Notes: generated from the letters alone by a model not told the origin. A stretch of DNA of 64,000 nt from an uncultured Phascolarctobacterium sp. (GCA_964641395.1 CAZXKQ010000007.1:7815-71814), one strand, 5' to 3'. Positions 9,031 to 64,000 are shown, counted from the first letter of the stretch. Numbers and translations are program-made.

Positions 9031-9107
9031 TGGTCGGGGCGGCGAGATTCGAACTCACGGCCTCTTGTACCCGAAACAAGCGCGCTACCAAACTGCGCCA
9101 CGCCCCG
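9031..9107 (-). tRNA. tRNA-Pro (anticodon CGG)
   Basis: Reverse complement CGGGGCGTGGCGCAGTTTGGTAGCGCGCTTGTTTCGGGTACAAGAGGCCGTGAGTTCGAATCTCGCCGCCCCGACCA folds as a cloverleaf: 7-bp acceptor stem, GCGC D-stem, CTTGT/ACAAG anticodon stem with loop TTCGGGT, TTCGAAT T-loop and an encoded CCA. Confidence 0.93.
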
Positions 9108-12430: not shown

Positions 12431-12865
12431 CTACTTCATCTCTGCCAGGACCTCCAAGGCCAGGGCATAGCCCTTAAAGCCCAGGCCGGTGATCTGGCCT
12501 AGGCAGGCGGCGGCCGTTACAGAATGGTGGCGGAAGTCCTCCCGCTTCTGGATATTGGAGAGGTGCACCTCGATGGTGGGCAGGTTCACCGCCTTCAGGG
12601 CGTCCAGGATGGCGATGCTGTAGTGGCTGAAGGCGGCAGGGTTGATGATGATGCCGTCGTGCTTGCCGTAGGTGGCCTGGATGGCCCCCACCAGCTCCCC
12701 TTCCGAATTGCTCTGGAAGATGTCCACCTGCACCCCTAGCTCGTCTGCCACCGCCTGGATGTAGGCGCTAAGGTCGGCGTAGTCCTTCTGGCCGTAAATC
12801 TCCTTCTCCCTCATGCCTAAAAGGTTGATGTTAGGCCCATTTAAAACAGCGATTCTCTTCATCAT
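12431..12865 (-). CDS. aroQ: Type II 3-dehydroquinate dehydratase
   Basis: 144 aa; VLNGPNINLLGMRE and VHLSNI motifs. Confidence 0.93.
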   Translation of the reverse strand: MMKRIAVLNGPNINLLGMREKEIYGQKDYADLSAYIQAVADELGVQVDIFQSNSEGELVGAIQATYGKHDGIIINPAAFSHYSIAILDALKAVNLPTIEVHLSNIQKREDFRHHSVTAAACLGQITGLGFKGYALALEVLAEMK

Positions 12866-13368
12866 ACAGCCTCCTTCCGGGCGATGGCCAGCAGCTGCTC
12901 CATAGCGGCGGCCTGGCTGCCCTCATTATCCACGGTATAAGCGCTATAGCGGCGGTACAGGCCTATCCTCTCCTGGTAGAGGGTGAAGATCCGCTCCTTA
13001 ACCGTCGCCAGCAGGGGGCGCTCATCCCCTGCTATGGTGCCGCTGGCCAAGATGGCCTGGGGACTTCTGTCGATAAAGATGATGCAGCCCTGGGCGGCCA
13101 GGAGCCGCATGTTCTCCTCCCGCTTCACCGCGCCGCCGCCACAGGCGATGACGCAGCCCTGCAGGCCGGCCAGGTAGGCCAGGGTGCGGCTCTCCGCCTC
13201 CCGGAAGGCTGCCTCGCTTTCGGCGAAGAAGCTTTTGATGCTCCGCCCCTCCCTGGCTTCCAGCACCTGGTCCGCATCGTAGAAGGGCCGGCCCAGGGCC
13301 GCCGCCAGCTGCCGGCCGAAGCTGGTCTTGCCGCAGCCCGGCAGGCCGATTAAGACTAGGTTCTTCAT
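12862..13368 (-). CDS. aroK: Shikimate kinase
   Basis: Start taken at MKNLVLIGLPGCGKTS (P-loop). This ATG overlaps the aroE stop (ATGA). The track ORF extends 20 codons further upstream. Confidence 0.9.
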   Translation of the reverse strand: MKNLVLIGLPGCGKTSFGRQLAAALGRPFYDADQVLEAREGRSIKSFFAESEAAFREAESRTLAYLAGLQGCVIACGGGAVKREENMRLLAAQGCIIFIDRSPQAILASGTIAGDERPLLATVKERIFTLYQERIGLYRRYSAYTVDNEGSQAAAMEQLLAIARKEAV

Positions 13369-14177
13369 GCCGTCAGCGCCTCCATCAGCCGCTGTACCAA
13401 GCTGTCCGGGTAGCTCTCCCCCTGCCACAGTTCCTGGGCCGCCACCGCCTGGGCCACCAGCATGAAGAGGCCGTTGCAGCAGGGCCGGCCCGCCGCCTGG
13501 GCCTGCTGCAAAAAGCGGGTCAGAGGGGGATTGTAGATTAAATCCACCGAGGCGGCGAAGCGGGCGCTGACCTGGGGCCCTACCGGAGCCGCCGCCACCG
13601 CCGGATACATGCCTACCGGGGTGCAGTTGATCAACAGGTCCCCCGCCAGCCCCTCCAGTTCCTGGTAGCTGGTAAAAACCGTCTGGGGGGCCAGGGTGAG
13701 GAAGGCCGGGTCTAGGCCCTGGGGCTGCCTGCTCACCAGGTAGAGCCGTCCTATCCCCTCATCCGCCAGGGCCTTCACCACCGCCCGGGCCGCTCCCCCG
13801 CTGCCCAGCACCGCCGCCACCTTGCCCCGGGGGTTGAAGCCGTAGTGGGCCAGCAGCCGGCGGAAGCCGTGGTAATCCGTATTATAGCCGTAGGCCCCCT
13901 GGGGGGTGAAGCTGATAGTGTTCACCGCCCCGATGGCGGCCGCCTCCCCTGCCACCCCGTCTAAGAGAGGCAGCACTGCCAGCTTGTGGGGGATGGTCAC
14001 ATTGCAGCCCCGGTAGCCGGAGCGGAGTTCCTGGAACAGGGCGGGCAGCTCCGCCGCCTCCGCCTCCAGCAGCCTGTACTCCCCCTCCTTGCCAGCGTAC
14101 TGGAAGAAGAGCTGGTGGATGGCGGGGGAGAGGCTGTGGCCCAGTCTGCCTCCCAGGAGGCCGTAACGGGGGGCCAT
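13365..14177 (-). CDS. aroE: Shikimate dehydrogenase
   Basis: MAPRYGLLGGRLGHSLSPAIH..., GCNVTIPHK. The ATG at 14177 shares its A with the pheA stop. Confidence 0.9.
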   Translation of the reverse strand: MAPRYGLLGGRLGHSLSPAIHQLFFQYAGKEGEYRLLEAEAAELPALFQELRSGYRGCNVTIPHKLAVLPLLDGVAGEAAAIGAVNTISFTPQGAYGYNTDYHGFRRLLAHYGFNPRGKVAAVLGSGGAARAVVKALADEGIGRLYLVSRQPQGLDPAFLTLAPQTVFTSYQELEGLAGDLLINCTPVGMYPAVAAAPVGPQVSARFAASVDLIYNPPLTRFLQQAQAAGRPCCNGLFMLVAQAVAAQELWQGESYPDSLVQRLMEALTA

Positions 14178-15298
14178 CAGCCTTTGCGGCGCTCGTACGC
14201 CTTGTAATTGCCTAGGATCTTGCAGTAGGTGCACTTGCCGGCTATTTCTTCCATCAGATCCACCACCAGGGGGTCTGCCAGGTTGCCTGTTACGTCGATG
14301 TAGAAGAAGTACTCCCAGCTCTTCCCCTCCATGGGCCGGCTCTCCAGGTTCAACAGGTTCAGGCCGGTGTGGTAGAAGGAGGCCAGCATCTTGTAGAGGG
14401 AGCCGGTCTCGTGCTTCACCGCCACGATGAGGGTGATCTTGTCCGCATTAGGCACCACCCCGGCCTTGCGGGCGATGATCACGAAACGGGTGGTATTGTT
14501 GGATTCGTAGTTAATGGCGGGGACGATGATCTGCAGGCCGTAGAGTTCCGCCGCCTTCTTCCCGGCTACGGCGCCCAGGCTCACGTCCTGCTTCAGGGCC
14601 ACCTCTTCCGCGCTCTTAGAGGTGCTGAAGAAGGGCACCTGCTCGATGGCTGGGTACTGCTTGAAGAATTCCTTGCTCTGCTTAAAGCCCTGGGGGTGGG
14701 AGTACACCGTCTTGATGCTGTCCATGGTGGCCCCCTCTATCCCCAGCAGGTTCTGCTCGATCTTCACACACTGCTCCCCTACGATGTGGCAGTCGTACTG
14801 ACGCAGCAGATCGTAGACCTCGGTGATGCCGCCGGTGGAGGAATTCTCTATCGGCAGCACCCCGTAGTCCATCTGGCCCAGGGCCACGCCGCTGATCACC
14901 TCTTCAAAGGTGTTGTAGTGGTGCCGGTCCACGGTCCGTTGCTGGAAGAAGTCCTCCAGGGCCTGATGGGTGAAGGAGCCGGGAGGGCCGAAGCAGGCCA
15001 CCTTGTAGACCCTGTCGTCCAGTTCCGCCAGGGCCGCCTCCTCCAGCACGCAGGCCTGGTCGATAATCCCCCGCATAATATTCTTCACCGCCAGGCTGTA
15101 GTCCTGGTTTTCCAGGAAGCCGGCCACCTTGGCGATGACCTTGGCCTCCCTGTTCTTGTCCTTCAAGGGCAGGCCCTGGGCCTTCTTGTAGGCGGCCACC
15201 TCCATCACCAGCTGCAGGCGCTTTTCCAGCACGTCTGCCAAGTCCTGATCCACCTGGTCGATTTCCTGCCGCAATAGTTCTAAGTCCCGCTCTCCCAT
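14177..15298 (-). CDS. pheA: Bifunctional chorismate mutase / prephenate dehydratase (P-protein)
   Basis: 373 aa. N-terminal AroQ-type chorismate mutase helix (LELLRQEIDQVDQDLADVLEKRLQLV), a prephenate dehydratase core, and a C-terminal ACT domain. Confidence 0.92.
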   Translation of the reverse strand: MGERDLELLRQEIDQVDQDLADVLEKRLQLVMEVAAYKKAQGLPLKDKNREAKVIAKVAGFLENQDYSLAVKNIMRGIIDQACVLEEAALAELDDRVYKVACFGPPGSFTHQALEDFFQQRTVDRHHYNTFEEVISGVALGQMDYGVLPIENSSTGGITEVYDLLRQYDCHIVGEQCVKIEQNLLGIEGATMDSIKTVYSHPQGFKQSKEFFKQYPAIEQVPFFSTSKSAEEVALKQDVSLGAVAGKKAAELYGLQIIVPAINYESNNTTRFVIIARKAGVVPNADKITLIVAVKHETGSLYKMLASFYHTGLNLLNLESRPMEGKSWEYFFYIDVTGNLADPLVVDLMEEIAGKCTYCKILGNYKAYERRKG

Positions 15299-15299
15299 C

Positions 15300-16397
15300 T
15301 CACTTCACCCACTTTTTAGCACTCAGGAGCAGATCGTAGAGCTGCCAGGCGGTCACCGCCTCCACCACCGGCACTGCCCTGGGCACGATGCAGGGGTCGT
15401 GGCGGCCTGCTATGGTCAGCTGGCAGTTTTCCCCCTTGGCCACGTCCACCGTGGCCTGGGGCCGGGCGATGGAGGGGGTGGGCTTGATGGCCACCCGCAG
15501 CAGCAGGGGCATGCCGTTAGACAGGCCCCCGGTGAGGCCGCCGTTGTTGTTGCTGGAACAGCGCACCCGGCCTGCCTGGTCGTAGTACATAGGATCATTG
15601 GCCTCGGCCCCGGTGAAGGAGGCCAGGCGGAAGCCGGCGCCGAACTCTATCCCCTTCACCGCCGGTACGGAGAAGAGGCCGTGGGCCAGGCGGCTTTCCA
15701 CCGAGTCAAAATAGGGCTCTCCCAGGCCGGGGGGCAGGCCTAGGGCCATCACTTCCACCACCCCGCCCAGGCTGTTCTGCTCCTCCTTGGCGGCCAGGAT
15801 GGCTGCTTCCATAGCCTGGCCCGCCGCCTCCTCCAGGACGCAGAAGGGCTTGCCGGCCAGGGCGGCCAGCTCCTCCTCTGCCTCCCCTAGGGGGTTGAAG
15901 GGCCGCTCCTCCACCGGTCCGATGCGGAGGATGTGGGCATAGACCCCTATCCCCTCCAGGGCCAGGGCCTGCTTGGCTATAGCCCCTGCTACCACCAAGG
16001 GGGCGGTGAGCCGGCCGGAAAAGTGGCCGCCGCCTCGGTAATCGTTGTAACCCTGGTAGTGGACGTAGCCGGCGTAGTCGGCGTGGCCCGGCCGCATCAC
16101 CCTGGCCAGCTGGCTGTAGTCCTTGGACTGCTGGCCCTTGTTGGCGATGCGGGCGCAGAGGGGAGTGCCGGTGGTGCGGCCGTTGAAAAGGCCGCTCTCT
16201 ATGTTGAGCCGATCCCCCTCCTGGCGGGCAGTGGCAGTCTTGCTCCTGCCTGGAGCCCGCCGCTCCAGCTCCCTCTGCACCTGGCCCAGGTCTAGGGCCA
16301 GGCCGGGGGGCAGGCCGTCCAGCACCAGGCCGATGGCCGGGCCGTGGGACTCGCCGAAGATGCTCAACCTAAGGTTGAGGCCCATGCTTCCGCTCAT
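15300..16397 (-). CDS. aroC: Chorismate synthase
   Basis: The start MSGSMGLNLRLSIFGESHGPAIG overlaps the aroA stop (ATGA). Conserved GESHG and RHDPC blocks are present. Confidence 0.93.
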   Translation of the reverse strand: MSGSMGLNLRLSIFGESHGPAIGLVLDGLPPGLALDLGQVQRELERRAPGRSKTATARQEGDRLNIESGLFNGRTTGTPLCARIANKGQQSKDYSQLARVMRPGHADYAGYVHYQGYNDYRGGGHFSGRLTAPLVVAGAIAKQALALEGIGVYAHILRIGPVEERPFNPLGEAEEELAALAGKPFCVLEEAAGQAMEAAILAAKEEQNSLGGVVEVMALGLPPGLGEPYFDSVESRLAHGLFSVPAVKGIEFGAGFRLASFTGAEANDPMYYDQAGRVRCSSNNNGGLTGGLSNGMPLLLRVAIKPTPSIARPQATVDVAKGENCQLTIAGRHDPCIVPRAVPVVEAVTAWQLYDLLLSAKKWVK

Positions 16398-17710
16398 GCT
16401 AACACCTCGAACTTGCCTCCCACCTGGGCGTAGTCCTGCCAAAAGGCGGGATAGGACTTGCTGACGCTGCCTGCCCCAGTCAGGATGATGGGCTGCTGGC
16501 AGCAGCTGGCGGCGATGGCCAGGCTCATGGCGATGCGGTGGTCGTTCCAGGCGTCTACCTGGGCTCCCCCTGCCAGGCTGGCCACCCCCTCTATTTCTAA
16601 GCCGTCAGGCCGCTCTTGGATGCGGGCGCCTAACTTGTTCAATTCCGTACTGATGGCCGCCAACCGGTCGCACTCCTTCAGCCGCAGCCGGCCGGCCTTG
16701 ATGACGCTGCTGTGGCCTGGGCAGAGGGCGGCCAGCACCGTCAGCACCGGTATGATGTCCGGGCAGTCGCTGCCGTCCAGCACCCAGGGCCGCCCCTGGC
16801 CCCGGCTCACCTGGAGGCCCCCCTCCGTCTCCTCCACCTCTGCCCCTAGGCAGGCCGCTAGGTCGGCTACCACCCTGTCCCCCTGCAGGGAGGCTAGGTC
16901 CAGGCCCTGGCAGCGGACCGGCCCTCCCAGGGCGCCGGCCACCGTCCAGAAGGCCGCCTGGGACCAGTCCCCCTCCACAGAGCGGGAGCGGGCCTGGTAG
17001 CGCTGCCCCCCTGGCACCAGGTAGCGGCGGTGGCGGCCGTCTTCATTGACCACCCTGATGCCGTACTTAGCCAGGCTGGCCAGGGTGAGGTTCACATAGG
17101 AGGCGGATTCCAGGGGAGAGGTCAGCTCTATCACCGAGTCCCCCTCCAAGAGGGGCAGGGCGAAGAGGAGGCCGCTGACGTACTGGCTGCTGACGTTGCC
17201 CGGCAGGGTGAAGGTGCCTGGCTGCAACCTGCCGTCCACCGTCAAAGGCAGGTGGAGGCCGGTCTGGGCCACCGGGCTGCGGTAGCTCAGGCCCTGCTGC
17301 TGGAAGATGCTGTAGTAGGCCTCCAAGGGCCGGCTGGCCAGCTTCCCGCCCCCGGTAAAGGTGAAGGGGGCGGCTAGGAGGGCCGCCAGAGGCACGAAGA
17401 AGCGGAGGGTGGAACCGCTTTCCCCGCAGTCCGCCCCTGGGGCCGCAGCCCAGAGGCGGCCCTGGCCTTTGATGAGCAGGGCGCTGCGGCCTGGGTAGGC
17501 GCTGGCCGTGGGAGCCAGCTCCACCCCCATGGCCCCCAGGCAGCGGCAGGTGGCCTCGATGTCCTTAGAGAGGCTGATATTGTCGATCTTACTGGTGCCG
17601 GCCGCCAGGGCGGCGCAGATGATCTCCCGGTGCCCCATGCTCTTAGAGGAGGGGGCGGTCACCTGGCCCTGGAGGCGGCTGGGATAAAGGCGTAGCTTGT
17701 CCATAATCAT
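16394..17710 (-). CDS. aroA: 3-phosphoshikimate 1-carboxyvinyltransferase (EPSP synthase)
   Basis: 438 aa; APSSKSMGHREI N-terminal motif and DHRIAMSLAIAA C-terminal motif. Confidence 0.95.
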   Translation of the reverse strand: MIMDKLRLYPSRLQGQVTAPSSKSMGHREIICAALAAGTSKIDNISLSKDIEATCRCLGAMGVELAPTASAYPGRSALLIKGQGRLWAAAPGADCGESGSTLRFFVPLAALLAAPFTFTGGGKLASRPLEAYYSIFQQQGLSYRSPVAQTGLHLPLTVDGRLQPGTFTLPGNVSSQYVSGLLFALPLLEGDSVIELTSPLESASYVNLTLASLAKYGIRVVNEDGRHRRYLVPGGQRYQARSRSVEGDWSQAAFWTVAGALGGPVRCQGLDLASLQGDRVVADLAACLGAEVEETEGGLQVSRGQGRPWVLDGSDCPDIIPVLTVLAALCPGHSSVIKAGRLRLKECDRLAAISTELNKLGARIQERPDGLEIEGVASLAGGAQVDAWNDHRIAMSLAIAASCCQQPIILTGAGSVSKSYPAFWQDYAQVGGKFEVLA

Positions 17711-18792
17711 GCTAGGTAGGCAGGGGCTTCCTGCCAGGGCAGGCTGTGCAGGACGGCCTCCCCGATGCGTTTTAATATAACCAGGGTGAGCCTGTCCCCC
17801 TGTTTCTTCTTATCCTTGGCCATCACCGCCAGCAGGGGCTGCTTAGGCAGCTCCTCCCCTAGGGGCAGCTGGTAGCGGAGCAGGGCCTGCTTAAGGGCGG
17901 CGGTGGTGCCGGGGGCGGTGAGGCCCAGGGCCTCCGTCCGCTTGGTGAGCTGGTACATGCCGATGGCCACCCCCTCCCCGTGGGTGTAGGTGCCGTAGCC
18001 GTAGTACTGCTCCACTGCATGGCCCAGGGTGTGGCCGAAGTTCAAAAGGGCCCGCAGCCCGGTGTCCAGTTCGTCCTGCTCTACGATCCGGGCCTTGATG
18101 GCGCAGCAGGCGGCCACCAGCTGGGGAGCCGCCGCCAAGAGGGCGGCGTCGTCCTCACAGGCGGCCAACTGCCGGAAGAGGGCTGCGTCCTTGATGCAGC
18201 CGTACTTGATGGCCTCCGCCGTACCGTCGTGGAGGAAGCGGGTGGGCAGGGTGCCGAGCAGCTCTGTGTCGATGTACACCGCCTTAGGCTGGTAGAAGGC
18301 GCCGGCCAGGTTCTTCCCCGCTGCCAGGTCCACCGCCACCTTCCCTCCTACGCTGCTGTCGATCTGGGCCAGCAGGGAGGTGGGCACCTGGACGAAGCTG
18401 AGGCCCCGCATGTAGCAGGCGGCGGCGAAGCCGCCTAGATCCCCCACCACCCCTCCTCCCAGGGTGAGGACCAGGTCGCTGCGGGTCAGCCCGGCCTGGG
18501 CCATGGCCTCCAAGAGCCGGCCTAGGTGGGCCAGGTTCTTGCTCCCCTCCCCGGCGGGGATGAGGAGGCTGAAGCTGGCCAGCCCCGCCTCCGCCAAGGA
18601 GGCGGCCAGCCGCCGGCCGTAGAGGGGGCCTACATTGCTGTCGCTGATGATGCAGGCCTGGCGGGCCTTAGGCAGCAGCTGGGCCACCGCCCCGCCCACG
18701 CCGTCCAGCAGGCCACGGCCGCTGTAGATGTGGTAGGCCTTAGGGCCTAGGTCCACGGTAATAGTCTGGTGCAGGCCTTTAAGGGTTGCCAC
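17707..18792 (-). CDS. aroB: 3-dehydroquinate synthase
   Basis: 361 aa; GGGVVGDLGGFAAA nucleotide loop and the HTLGHAVE metal site. GTG start preceded by GAGGAGAAGGGG. Confidence 0.93.
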   Translation of the reverse strand: MATLKGLHQTITVDLGPKAYHIYSGRGLLDGVGGAVAQLLPKARQACIISDSNVGPLYGRRLAASLAEAGLASFSLLIPAGEGSKNLAHLGRLLEAMAQAGLTRSDLVLTLGGGVVGDLGGFAAACYMRGLSFVQVPTSLLAQIDSSVGGKVAVDLAAGKNLAGAFYQPKAVYIDTELLGTLPTRFLHDGTAEAIKYGCIKDAALFRQLAACEDDAALLAAAPQLVAACCAIKARIVEQDELDTGLRALLNFGHTLGHAVEQYYGYGTYTHGEGVAIGMYQLTKRTEALGLTAPGTTAALKQALLRYQLPLGEELPKQPLLAVMAKDKKKQGDRLTLVILKRIGEAVLHSLPWQEAPAYLA

Positions 18793-19681
18793 GGTTCAAT
18801 CCCCTTCTCCTCTCCCTGGCCAGGCGCATCAAGGCCTTCATAGCCTCTCCGTCCCCCCGGCCCAGGGCCTGCTGCCACAGGTGCAGCTGTGCTACGTACT
18901 TGTCCAGCTCCGCCAGCAGTTCCTCCCTGTTGCTCAAGAAGAGGTCGCACCACAGCTCCGGATTGATGTCTGCCACCCTGGTGCCGTCCTTAAAGCTGCC
19001 AGCCACAAAAAAGCGGGTGTTCTCGTTATAGGAGGGGCTGTCGATGAGGGCCACGGCGGCCACATGGGTGAGCTGGCTCACGTAGGCGATGATCCTGTCG
19101 TGCTCCTGGGGCGTCACCGTCACCGTCTGCTTACAGCCCAGGGCCAGGGCGAAGCTGCGCAGCCAGGCCACAGCCTGGGGGCTGTTGGCCTCCGTAGGCA
19201 CCACGATGTAGTTGGCCGAGTGGAAGATCTTCTCCGAGGCCATGGCCAGGCCCTGGGCCTCCCGCCCTGCCATAGGGTGGCCGGCGATGAACTCCATGCC
19301 CTGGGGCAGCACCCTCTGGATGTCGTAGGGCAGGCTGCCCTTGATGCCGGTCACATCCGTCACCAAGGCGTCGGCCTTGAAGTAGGCCGCATTGGCCGTG
19401 ATGAAACTGTACACCGCCTCAGGGTAGATGGCGCAGAGCACCACGTCCGCCTCTCCCAGGGCCGGCCCCGGCTGCTGGAGGGCCAGGTCTAGCAGGCCCA
19501 GGGCCTGGGCCTCCTCTAGCACCGCCCCCTCCCTGTCCAGGCCGATGATGCGCTTCACTCCCAGGCAGCGCAGGGCCTTGGCCATAGAGCCGCCGATGAC
19601 GCCTAGGCCGATGATGGCGAAGCTCAGCCCCCCTAGGGAGAGGCCGCCGTCAGGGCCTAGGCCCTTAAAACCACTGTCCAC
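18779..19681 (-). CDS. tyrA: Prephenate dehydrogenase
   Basis: 300 aa; IIGLGVIGGSMAKAL Rossmann motif and the HPMAG block. GTG start with a GGAGGT RBS. Confidence 0.9.
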   Translation of the reverse strand: MDSGFKGLGPDGGLSLGGLSFAIIGLGVIGGSMAKALRCLGVKRIIGLDREGAVLEEAQALGLLDLALQQPGPALGEADVVLCAIYPEAVYSFITANAAYFKADALVTDVTGIKGSLPYDIQRVLPQGMEFIAGHPMAGREAQGLAMASEKIFHSANYIVVPTEANSPQAVAWLRSFALALGCKQTVTVTPQEHDRIIAYVSQLTHVAAVALIDSPSYNENTRFFVAGSFKDGTRVADINPELWCDLFLSNREELLAELDKYVAQLHLWQQALGRGDGEAMKALMRLARERRRGLNRGNP

Positions 19682-19731
19682 GCTAATTTACCTCCATCCT
19701 ACCGTACTACTATATAAATTAGCCTTTCAGT

Positions 19732-20745
19732 CTACAAATCCCTGCCTATAATGCGGGCAATGCCCTTTAATTCTCCCATTAAGCGGGCGAAGCGCTCCGG
19801 TTTCAAGGACTGGGCCCCGTCGCAGAGGGCGGCCTCCGGATTGTTGTGCACCTCGATGATCAGGCCGTCCGCCCCTACGGCCACCGCCGCCTTGGCCAGG
19901 GGCTCCACCATCCACCACATGCCGGCGGCGTGGCTGGGATCCACGATCACCGGCAGGTGGGAGAGCTTCTTCACTGCAGGGATGGCGCTCAGGTCCAAGG
20001 TGTTGCGGGTGTACTGCTCAAAGGTGCGGATGCCCCGCTCGCAGAGGATGACGTTGTCGTTGCCCCCTGCCATAATGTATTCGGCGCTCATGATCCACTC
20101 CTCGATAGTGGCGGCCAGGCCCCGTTTCAGCAGGATGGGCTTGCGGATCTTCCCCAGCTCCTTCAACAGGCTGAAGTTCTGCATGTTGCGGGCCCCCACC
20201 TGGATCAGGTCCACATCCTCCACGTAGCGCTCTATCATGTCGGCGCTCATGATCTCGGTGACGATGGGCAGGCCGGAGGCCTCCCGGGCCGCCTTCAGGT
20301 AGTCCAGGCCCAGCTCCTGCAGGCCCTGGAAGGAGTAGGGGGAGGTGCGGGGTTTGAAGGCCCCGCCCCGCAGCATGCTGGCACCGCCGATCTTCACCGC
20401 GGCGGCGATCTGGCACACCTGCTCCTCAGTCTCTACCGAGCAGGGGCCGGCGATGACCTGGAGCTTGCGGCCCCCCACCTTGACCCCCGCCACATCCACC
20501 ACCGTGTCATCTGGGTGGAACATCCGGTTGGCCCGTTTGAAGGGCTCCTGCACCCGCATAACCTTCTCCACGCTGTCGTCCACCCGGTACTGGTTGATGT
20601 CCAGCACGCTGGTGTCGCCGATGATGCCGAAGATGGTCATGTTGACGCCGTTGATCTCGTTAATCTGGAAGCCGCTGGCCTCCAGGTTGGCCTTGATCTT
20701 GTTCCTGCTCTCTACAGAAGCGCCGGGTTTGAATACGATTACCAT
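19732..20745 (-). CDS. aroF: 3-deoxy-7-phosphoheptulonate (DAHP) synthase, class I-beta, with an N-terminal ferredoxin-like regulatory domain
   Basis: Start MVIVFKPG follows AAAGGAGAGG. About 75 aa of ACT/FL-like domain are followed by a KDO8PS-like TIM barrel (QVIAGPCSVE, VIVDPSHA). Confidence 0.92.
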   Translation of the reverse strand: MVIVFKPGASVESRNKIKANLEASGFQINEINGVNMTIFGIIGDTSVLDINQYRVDDSVEKVMRVQEPFKRANRMFHPDDTVVDVAGVKVGGRKLQVIAGPCSVETEEQVCQIAAAVKIGGASMLRGGAFKPRTSPYSFQGLQELGLDYLKAAREASGLPIVTEIMSADMIERYVEDVDLIQVGARNMQNFSLLKELGKIRKPILLKRGLAATIEEWIMSAEYIMAGGNDNVILCERGIRTFEQYTRNTLDLSAIPAVKKLSHLPVIVDPSHAAGMWWMVEPLAKAAVAVGADGLIIEVHNNPEAALCDGAQSLKPERFARLMGELKGIARIIGRDL

Positions 20746-20821
20746 GATGTCCTCTCCTTTTTCCTTCAGAGTCGCCTTAACCACACCTTAAGCTGGCCAG
20801 TCCCTGGTCAGGGCCCGCCTA

Positions 20822-20854
20822 TAAGAAAAAGCAGGCCCACGTAAATGAGCCTGC
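20822..20854 (-). terminator. Intrinsic terminator (attenuator) inside the aro operon leader
   Basis: Minus strand GCAGGCTCA-tttacg-TGGGCCTGC (9 bp including one G-U), followed by TTTTTCTTAT, 76 nt upstream of the aroF start. Confidence 0.7.
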
Positions 20855-20908
20855 TGCAAGCTGCGCCGCTGTCAATCGTTCCAACAGCTGTCAACCCTTG
20901 GCTACTTT

Positions 20909-21034
20909 TTACGGAACTGATGCTTGTGGACTTTTCTCCGCCATAGCGAAAGCGCCGGTGCTAAAGTAATAGCTAAAGACCGGGGCGTAAGGAAAGTCGA
21001 AATAAGCATTAGCGTTCTGTCTTAAAGCAGCCAT
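20909..21034 (-). CDS. Candidate aro operon leader peptide, 41 aa, Phe/Tyr-rich
   Basis: Too short for the ORF track. GGTGGA RBS, 4 nt, then ATG. Product MAALRQNANAYFDFPYAPVFSYYFSTGAFAMAEKSPQASVP has 5 Phe and 4 Tyr within residues 11-29. It lies between the promoter and the terminator. Confidence 0.55.
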   Translation of the reverse strand: MAALRQNANAYFDFPYAPVFSYYFSTGAFAMAEKSPQASVP

Positions 21035-21084
21035 CTAATCCACCTGTAAAGGAAGGGCGAAGGCGGAAGCCAACGATTAGGCTT

Positions 21085-21113
21085 ATTGTAACCCAGCCCA
21101 GGGCCTGCGTCAA
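21085..21113 (-). promoter_or_regulatory. Sigma-A promoter of the aro operon (TTGACG-17 nt-TACAAT)
   Basis: Minus strand CCCTTGACGCAGGCCCTGGGCTGGGTTACAATAAGC. Confidence 0.7.
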
Positions 21114-21201
21114 GGGAAAAGTAGAAAAACTGTTACAAAATAGTCCTGGCCGACCGCTATTGTAATATAGTTTACACTCACAAGCTTTGGGCCAAGACGG
21201 C

Positions 21202-21534
21202 CTACTTAGAACTGATGTAGTCAAAGGCCCGGGCCTTGTCCATGTGCACCTTCTCCACCCAGGCCCGGAAGCGGGCGTGGTTGGTTACGTCCAGCACCTC
21301 ACAGCTGCCGTAGCGGTCGATGTCCCCTTCCACTACATCCCCCACCTGGGGGAAGCGGGACAGGTAGAAGTTGACCTTGAGGCCGCTGTACTGGGCGTAG
21401 CGCTGGGTCTGCACCACGAAGAAGCGCTTCCCCTTGTCCGCATAGACCACCCTGCCGCCGGCAGCAGAGCAGAGGGCGGCGAGGCTCACTAAGAAGGCGG
21501 TCAAGAACAGCAGAAAAAGTTTTTTCATCTCCAT
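21202..21534 (-). CDS. Hypothetical secreted protein (signal peptide)
   Basis: 110 aa. MEMKKLFLLFLTAFLVSLAALCSAAGG is a signal-peptide-like N-terminus. No family recognised. The start could instead be M3 (21528). Confidence 0.6.
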   Translation of the reverse strand: MEMKKLFLLFLTAFLVSLAALCSAAGGRVVYADKGKRFFVVQTQRYAQYSGLKVNFYLSRFPQVGDVVEGDIDRYGSCEVLDVTNHARFRAWVEKVHMDKARAFDYISSK

Positions 21535-63869: not shown

Positions 63870-63882
63870 AGCCTTGACAACT

Positions 63883-63975
63883 GCATGCGGGAGCTTGTGT
63901 TACAGGCTGAGAGGAAGGTGCTACCTTCGACTGCGAACCTGATTTGGATAATGCCAACGTAGGGAAGACGGTGAC
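63883..63975 (+). promoter_or_regulatory. TPP (THI-box) riboswitch aptamer; the expression platform and regulated gene lie beyond the window end
   Basis: GGGAGC...GGCTGAGAGG...GCGAACCTGATTTGGATAATGCCAACGTAGGGAAG matches the conserved THI-box core (CTGAGA, ACCTGAT, GGATAATGCC, CGTAGGGAA). Confidence 0.85.
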
Positions 63976-64000
63976 AGGGCTGCCAAATCGGCGGCCCTTC

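Follow-up and report, generated by a model that had tools for sequence, protein, structure and literature searches.

Genes and leader at the aroF locus

The DNA analysed here, referred to as the window, is a 64,000-nt stretch from an uncultured Phascolarctobacterium sp. (GCA_964641395.1, CAZXKQ010000007.1:7815-71814), the minus strand of which carries a nine-gene operon for aromatic amino-acid synthesis, aroF-tyrA-aroB-aroA-aroC-pheA-aroE-aroK-aroQ. Upstream of the aroF ATG at 20745 there is a gap of 456 nt, which contains, in this order, a promoter, a Shine-Dalgarno (SD) site serving as ribosome-binding site, a 41-codon open reading frame (ORF) with a zone rich in Phe and Tyr codons, and an intrinsic terminator (Table 1). 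Here it is proposed that this leader is most probably a ribosome-mediated (leader-peptide) transcription attenuator of the aro operon. According to the NCBIfam assignments, the nine genes encode the common pathway to chorismate plus exactly the Phe and Tyr branches, pheA being a chorismate mutase-prephenate dehydratase (CM-PDT), and none of them is a trp gene. Both this gene content and the places of the promoter, SD site, ORF and terminator on the minus strand agree with a preliminary description of the locus, as does the composition of leader residues 11-29, of which 9 of 19 are Phe or Tyr and none is Trp. Apart from the leader ORF, no short ORF in the window reaches nine Phe/Tyr in any 20 residues; a scan of the window for other amino-acid-rich mini-ORFs returned only noise from GC-rich alternative frames.

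The AroF relatives and the lineage assign the DNA to Phascolarctobacterium (Bacillota; Negativicutes; Acidaminococcales), the closest AroF locus in a set of one genome per species (L001) having 94% AroF identity. The genome is thus not of the Gram-positive type that had been supposed, the Negativicutes being Bacillota by descent yet a Gram-negative-staining class. The promoter at 21113..21085 matches 10 of 12 consensus positions, and the 3-kb region has three promoter-like sites against 0.6 expected; transcripts probably start near 21078.

Table 1. Features of the aroF leader and its operon in the window, and T-boxes at the same position in relatives.
Feature	Position	Strand	Basis or remark
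-35 hexamer TTGACG	21108..21113	minus	TTGACG/TTGACA kept at the aligned position in aligned Acidaminococcales relatives
-10 hexamer TACAAT, 17-nt spacer	21085..21090	minus	promoter scan, Acidaminococcales alignment
SD site AGGTGGA of leader ORF	21039..21045	minus	sequence; SD and ATG in every family member
Leader ORF, ATG, 41 codons and TAA, MAALRQNANAYFDFPYAPVFSYYFSTGAFAMAEKSPQASVP	20909..21034	minus	ORF reading
Region 1, 5' strand of P1, codons 1-7, AUGGCUGCUUUAAGACAGAAC	21014..21034	minus	pairs with region 2
Regulatory codon zone, codons 11-29, 5 Phe and 4 Tyr	20948..21004	minus	within P1 loop
Region 2, UUCCGUAAAAAGUAGCCAA, stop codon inside; 3' strand of P1 and 5' strand of antiterminator	20898..20916	minus	pairing search
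Variable spacer, two TTGACAGC copies (20894..20887, 20875..20868), small hairpin possible	20866..20894	minus	sequence not conserved
Region 3, terminator 5' arm and loop, UGCAGCAGGCUCAUUUAC	20841..20858	minus	pairs with region 2 as antiterminator
Intrinsic terminator hairpin (regions 3:4)	20830..20855	minus	hairpin search; covariation
U-tract TTTTCTTA after terminator	20822..20829	minus	sequence
Regulated operon aroF-tyrA-aroB-aroA-aroC-pheA-aroE-aroK-aroQ	12431..20745	minus	NCBIfam assignments
T-boxes upstream of aroF in relatives	L039:2679-2938, L047:2623-2885, L056:2487-2745, L072:2696-2945		RF00230 model

Conservation and coding of the leader ORF

The comparison set consisted of 80 aroF-anchored loci. 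A Phe/Tyr-rich mini-ORF was found upstream of aroF in about 62 of them, belonging to Negativicutes, Clostridia and Bacilli. The carriers include all Phascolarctobacterium/Acidaminococcales loci with sequence upstream of aroF, as well as many Clostridium species, Negativibacillus, Vulcanibacillus and metagenome-assembled genomes (MAGs) of Bacillaceae/Bacillales. Wherever the mini-ORF occurs in the 80 loci, its immediate downstream neighbour is aroF or a tandem copy of aroF. Such tandem aroF pairs, encoding 3-deoxy-7-phosphoheptulonate (DAHP) synthase, are present in L015, L026, L027, L028, L030 and L031, and in these only the first copy has the leader ORF and terminator in front of it.

Phascolarctobacterium-type aroF loci also occur in assemblies that bear the names Escherichia coli, Segatella copri, Duodenibacillus and Acholeplasmataceae (L007, L008, L010, L026, L030, L032), which probably reflects mis-binning or mislabelling of contigs. 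Those under the Acholeplasmataceae name (L026, L030, L032) resemble Phascolarctobacterium, all three with Acidaminococcales-type leader peptides, and the upstream ORF of L032 is similar to the one in P. faecium L029. The leader peptide of L007 is identical to those of P. succinatutens L006 and L014.

Every copy of the mini-ORF has an SD site, AGGTGA in Acidaminococcales and GGAGG in Clostridia, spaced as usual from an ATG. In a frame-blind test, in which the strongest SD-like site upstream was located and then the first ATG or GTG regardless of frame, the start fell in the Phe/Tyr frame in 44 of the 46 informative cases, against one third by chance. Codon periodicity over the whole ORF is weak (mean entropies of 1.11, 1.18 and 1.20 for positions 1, 2 and 3), and the support for coding lies in the frame test and in individual codons, with synonymous variation seen at Gly, Tyr and Phe/Leu codons; the ORF is presumed to be translated. 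The family comprises 55 distinct peptides of 31-60 residues, in which Phe and Tyr make up 25% of residues, with a mean of 6.1 Phe and 4.9 Tyr per peptide, and 41 of which have at least one Trp. The aromatic residues are not spread evenly: the Phe/Tyr share is 0-7% in codons 1-10, the aromatic zone comprises codons 11-30, and 44 of the 55 peptides have their first Phe/Tyr residue at codon 11-13, about one ribosome footprint from the ATG.

The relationship between classes can be recovered at the peptide level. With a profile built from Clostridia and Bacilli peptides only, C. sartagoforme being among the sources, the window ORF was the sole match among 1402 six-frame segments (E=0.0011, next best 3.5), and the same profile matched the Phascolarctobacterium peptides at 1e-4 to 1e-11. 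A DNA-only hidden Markov model from the Clostridial leaders found the right place in the window, with an E value (2.7) that is not significant.

These observations also bear on two other explanations of the locus. One is that the leader is a structured regulatory RNA binding a ligand, tRNA or protein, with the reading frame incidental. The weak periodicity would suit such an RNA, as would the conserved synonymous positions and the long-range helix P1 (see below), which encloses a nucleotide-conserved core with UUUAGC twice. It is nevertheless considered highly improbable given the strong SD site (GGAGG in Clostridia) and properly spaced ATG of all members, the outcome of the frame-blind test, a frame that stays open for 31-60 codons in AT-rich genomes, an enrichment that is specific to the end-product amino acids of the operon, and the negative Rfam and T-box scans given below. 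The other is that the ORF encodes a small hydrophobic protein which functions independently, the terminator merely ending its transcript, an option that the preliminary description had left beside attenuation. Homologues are indeed annotated in many genomes, and in public protein collections they are labelled only as hypothetical proteins; yet none of the 79 matches has a Pfam domain, the length and both termini of the peptide vary freely among relatives, the stop position wanders, the ORF keeps its place directly upstream of aroF, and a T-box takes that place in some lineages. A small protein is thus not needed to explain the ORF, and this is the least credible of the explanations considered.

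The family peptides share a conserved core, [FY]-[FY]-F-S-x-G-[YF]. The window peptide has Y22-Y23-F24 where the family consensus is [YF]-Y-F, and over the core codons (20977..20955 in the window and the same columns family-wide) nucleotide conservation exceeds the coding need. The Ser of the [FY]-F-S motif is encoded by AGC in all 57 true leader instances listed, never by UCN, and the Phe codon before it is almost always UUU; the invariant UUUAGC core could be a pause or arrest element. A sequence UAGC-N4-G(C/U)UA among the core codons could fold into a 4-bp mini-hairpin, in the Clostridial leaders at two places.

Conservation of the core raises the question of an arrest-peptide sensor, which would act in the ribosome exit tunnel like TnaC, SecM or the Erm leader peptides, so that stalling would depend on the nascent peptide, possibly with free Phe or Tyr, rather than on charged tRNA supply alone. 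Its non-aromatic Ser and Gly are conserved across classes, and the third position of the Gly codon varies, as if selection acted on the amino acid. The fixed AGC and nearly fixed UUU, on the other hand, place the constraint at least partly on the RNA; the window peptide (FDFPYAPVFS) and that of L001 (a four-codon deletion, FSYY) depart from the core; and the ends of the peptide are free to vary. Moreover, a free end-product that raises read-through would have the wrong sign for a biosynthetic operon. On balance, an arrest peptide seems very unlikely, and attenuation through the Phe/Tyr codons is retained as the preferred reading.

Terminator and the predicted antiterminator and P1 helices

The terminator consists of 11 pairs including G-U (nine had been counted previously), six of them G-C, with a 4-nt loop followed by TTTTCTT, and has a predicted energy of -17.5 kcal/mol. 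Of about 60 leaders searched, only L049 gave no terminator hairpin, and Rho-coupled termination, which had been suggested as an alternative, is not needed. In an alignment of 57 leaders, both partners change in 8 of 10 pairs and 89% of cells pair; none of 500 shuffles reached this, and slid alignments paired at 34-59%.

The spacer ahead of the terminator contains the two direct TTGACAGC repeats that had been noticed before. The copies are present, although as a conserved element they were rejected, being absent from relatives and even from the closest, L001. Relatives have an equivalent spacer, not conserved in sequence and often hairpin-forming by eye, as in L001, L013, L017, L040 and L070. 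The spacer hairpin might bring regions 2 and 3 together.

The preliminary description could not identify an antiterminator competing with the terminator. Such a partner is present: nucleotides 20916..20898 (region 2) can pair with 20858..20841 (region 3) in a duplex of -10.3 kcal/mol, and this 2:3 pairing and the 3:4 terminator are mutually exclusive. The homologue of region 2 is CGUAAUAGAAGCC in Acidaminococcales and CUAAUGAGU in Clostridia, and it is the most stable partner of the terminator 5' arm and loop in most of 60 leaders, at -5 to -16 kcal/mol. In the Acidaminococcales alignment, 77.6% of antiterminator cells pair against 40-60% in slid alignments, with a covariation score of 0.171 compared to 0.132 in shuffles (reached by 1 of 500). 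A separate count in Python gave 76-78% of cells paired in both subgroups, the slid alignments ranging over 37-64% across the two counts. The subgroups have matching versions of the two strands, GUAAUAGAAGCC with GGCUCUUUUAC and UAAUGAGU with ACUCAUUA, and L042, partly read by eye, has a compensatory change from A-U to U-A.

Region 2 also pairs with the beginning of the leader ORF. This 1:2 helix, P1, formed in the window by 21034..21014 with region 2, has a predicted energy of -16.0 kcal/mol (z=-3.0) and is part of the minimum-free-energy fold. It encloses codons 8-38, and the Phe/Tyr codons thus lie in the P1 loop. Across 60 leaders, cognate 1:2 pairs have a mean of -9.4 kcal/mol and non-cognate ones of -5.8 kcal/mol. 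In the Acidaminococcales alignment, P1 has a covariation score of 0.271 against 0.145, with seven pairs changing on both sides, and the pairing behaves alike in the Clostridial subgroup. Of its cells in the former alignment, 63% pair, compared to 31-47% in slid alignments and 54% in shuffles (0 of 500 reach the value), and since kinship of the sequences alone, with no structure, can be enough to outscore all shuffles, both P1 and the antiterminator are graded as supported, short of proven.

The family-wide partner of region 2 is codons 1-7. A location of region 1 at the G-F-Y-Y-A codons was rejected as the general arrangement; it holds only in a P. succinatutens-like subgroup, where region 2 (CGUAAUAGAAGCC) is predicted to pair with these codons at -13 to -21 kcal/mol (up to -20.6), which would be the classical arrangement.

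Proposed mechanism of attenuation

The supply of Phe and Tyr is most likely sensed via ribosome stalling on the leader ORF. Transcription would start at the promoter at 21113..21085 and the leader ORF would be translated at once. While charged tRNA-Phe and tRNA-Tyr are plentiful, the ribosome would cross the Phe/Tyr zone up to the stop codon inside region 2; by occupying region 2 it would prevent the 2:3 pairing, the terminator at 20855..20830 would form, and transcription would end before aroF. If no ribosome is loaded, region 2 would be held by codons 1-7 in P1, with termination again as the result. When Phe or Tyr is scarce, ribosomes would stall in codons 11-29 and leave region 2 ribosome-free, so that it could pair with the newly transcribed terminator 5' arm and loop as an antiterminator, allowing read-through into aroF-tyrA...pheA. 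During the stall, region 1 would have to be kept from re-pairing; a second ribosome waiting at the start codon might do this, or the stalled one might sterically impede P1 closure.

Several points weigh against this mechanism. Region 1 lies upstream of the regulatory codons, without the overlap present in trpL, and in folds with one stalled ribosome masked, P1 stays and the antiterminator is absent, for which reason the extra assumption on region 1 is needed; in these folds a TACAAT within the upstream palindrome was taken as the -10, which gave the leader about 70 extra 5' nt, and the conclusion on P1 is independent of that extension. In 45 of 60 leaders the ORF extends past the start of region 2; in the other 15 the predicted start of region 2 is 1-25 nt past the first stop-codon base, so a terminating ribosome may cover little of the region. 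Covariation in the antiterminator is small, because both of its strands are conserved. The constant AGC codon of the core does not fit a pure counting of codons, and no experimental test of the published class to which the leader is assigned below was found in the literature searched.

A ribosome queue has been considered in particular for the release of region 2, in which the lead ribosome stalls at the first Phe/Tyr codons and a second one loads, runs into it and is parked on region 1. Its basis is the location of region 1 in codons 1-7 and the Phe/Tyr-poor first 10 codons of the 55 distinct peptides; these 10 or so codons amount to roughly one ribosome footprint, in keeping with a second ribosome. 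The queue is possible but doubtful; if it is true, the signal would be read by two ribosomes instead of one, with the stalled lead ribosome just clearing the initiation site.

Exchange with T-boxes and a decayed operon

The aroF loci of relatives allow the leader ORF to be compared with another type of regulator at the same place. The T-box covariance model (RF00230) gave no match in 20700..21250 of the window, even at E<=10, in line with the earlier remark that no T-box consensus could be seen. Similarly, neither gathering thresholds nor the E<=10 limit gave a match of the leader to an Rfam 15 family, apart from two chance snoRNA-like matches. The same T-box model is positive, with 114-121 bits, directly upstream of the orthologous aroF in at least four relatives that lack the leader ORF (L039, L047, L056, L072), which belong to Lachnospiraceae and Erysipelotrichaceae. 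The presence of a T-box at this position in ORF-less relatives points to an equivalent regulatory role of the leader, and the two have been swapped at one gene position within Bacillota, where a Phe/Tyr leader precedes some aroF genes and a T-box precedes others closely related to them. Ordinary leader peptides replacing T-boxes in Firmicutes have been described for hisS (Naville and Gautheret 2010).

One relative, the MAG UMGS717 (L021, leader at 2694-2954), has the promoter, the upstream palindrome described below, P1, region 2 and the terminator intact, with the Phe/Tyr codons of its leader replaced, mostly by Cys codons (MDSMKMQAVSAYCFCCYPVVSCDCCTGSFACKK...). Its aro operon is decayed and consists of aroF, an aroA fragment and a stand-alone chorismate mutase (L021:4100-5203). 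The loss of Phe/Tyr codons alongside the decay of the operon supports the functional reading of the leader.

Other features of the window

A perfect palindrome, TGTAA-N6-TTACA (TGTAAACTATATTACA, minus strand), is located at 21161..21176, about 50 bp upstream of the -35 hexamer. Each of 27 Phascolarctobacterium/Acidaminococcales loci has one exact copy at the corresponding place, and in none of the Clostridial loci fetched was the palindrome found upstream of aroF. With one mismatch allowed, the window has three matches against 0.34 expected. The palindrome is probably a transcription-factor operator and would provide a second layer of control. It resembles the TyrR box (TGTAAA-N6-TTTACA) and CRP/FNR-type 5-6-5 sites, with half-sites 2 bp closer together than those of the TyrR box.

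The sole Rfam matches in the window are a tRNA gene at 9034..9107 (minus strand, 63 bits) and a thiamine pyrophosphate (TPP) riboswitch at 63877..63982 (plus strand), with 59.8 bits against a gathering score of 54.3.

Comparison with known and candidate attenuators

The preliminary description implied that the leader was new, and the same interpretation had been reached independently for a published bioinformatic candidate class, uORF-13, with 336 unique examples in Bacilli, Clostridia and Negativicutes, where Acidaminococcales, Selenomonadales and Veillonellales are named (Stav et al. 2019, BMC Microbiol 19:66, PMC6429828). About half of the examples are upstream of aroF (3-deoxy-7-phosphoheptulonate synthase), followed by tyrA and other shikimate genes, and the class is predicted to work like the trp attenuator (PMC6429828). 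Like uORF-13, the window has a short ORF with a ribosome-binding site upstream of a terminator stem, an aromatic F-Y-F-type consensus in the P1 loop and a shikimate gene context, in an order within the published range; nothing substantive differs. As it has all the listed features, the element is filed as a putative member of uORF-13, an assignment based on these features and on homology to Clostridium leaders, including C. sartagoforme, which is among the uORF-13 carriers listed (PMC6429828). In the published description as read, only P1 and the terminator are mentioned; the present analysis adds the antiterminator and a role for codons 1-7. The attenuator is therefore already known as a predicted class, to which are added here the antiterminator, the pairing of P1 with the ORF start, and the question of how a stalled ribosome passes on its signal. 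The attenuator would explain the 456-nt gap upstream of aroF, which could be annotated as leader peptide plus attenuator.

Other candidates are more distant. uORF-12 is a Phe/Tyr-rich upstream ORF (uORF) attenuator candidate of Firmicutes, mostly upstream of amino-acid transporters (PMC6429828); it shares some shikimate gene context with the window and differs in its more complex structure and in a peptide encoded just before P1, not in the P1 loop. uORFC-13-1, with 24 examples from Acholeplasma and environmental sequences only (Brewer et al. 2021, RNA Biol 18:2417, PMC8632094), also has a uORF with Phe codons, a promoter, a ribosome-binding site and a terminator, and is exclusively upstream of aroF. 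The aroR leader of Corynebacterium glutamicum, found by transcriptomics according to Stav et al. (PMC6429828), has the F-Y-F consensus ahead of aromatic biosynthesis genes; however, it is actinobacterial, and the remaining peptide and the RNA structure are distinct from uORF-13 (PMC6429828).

If the proposed reading is correct, leader peptides are a widespread means of attenuating aromatic amino-acid synthesis in Bacillota; no new principle comes out of it. The classical leader-peptide attenuators are the enterobacterial pheL (leader of pheA), pheM (leader of pheST) and trpL, and the pheL/trpL-like logic that had been suggested for the window is supported by the conservation of the ORF, ribosome-binding site, Phe/Tyr zone and terminator across three classes of Bacillota. 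With these leaders the window shares the use of end-product codons, mutually exclusive 2:3 and 3:4 pairings, and a 1:2 pairing that would enforce termination when the leader is untranslated. It has no sequence relationship to them, and their Rfam leader families have no match here. The window ORF is about three times longer and mixes Phe and Tyr codons, whereas pheL, pheM and trpL use a single amino acid. Also unlike those leaders, the ORF of the window type usually runs through region 2, and region 1 is made of codons 1-7, upstream of the regulatory codons, which region 1 overlaps in trpL.

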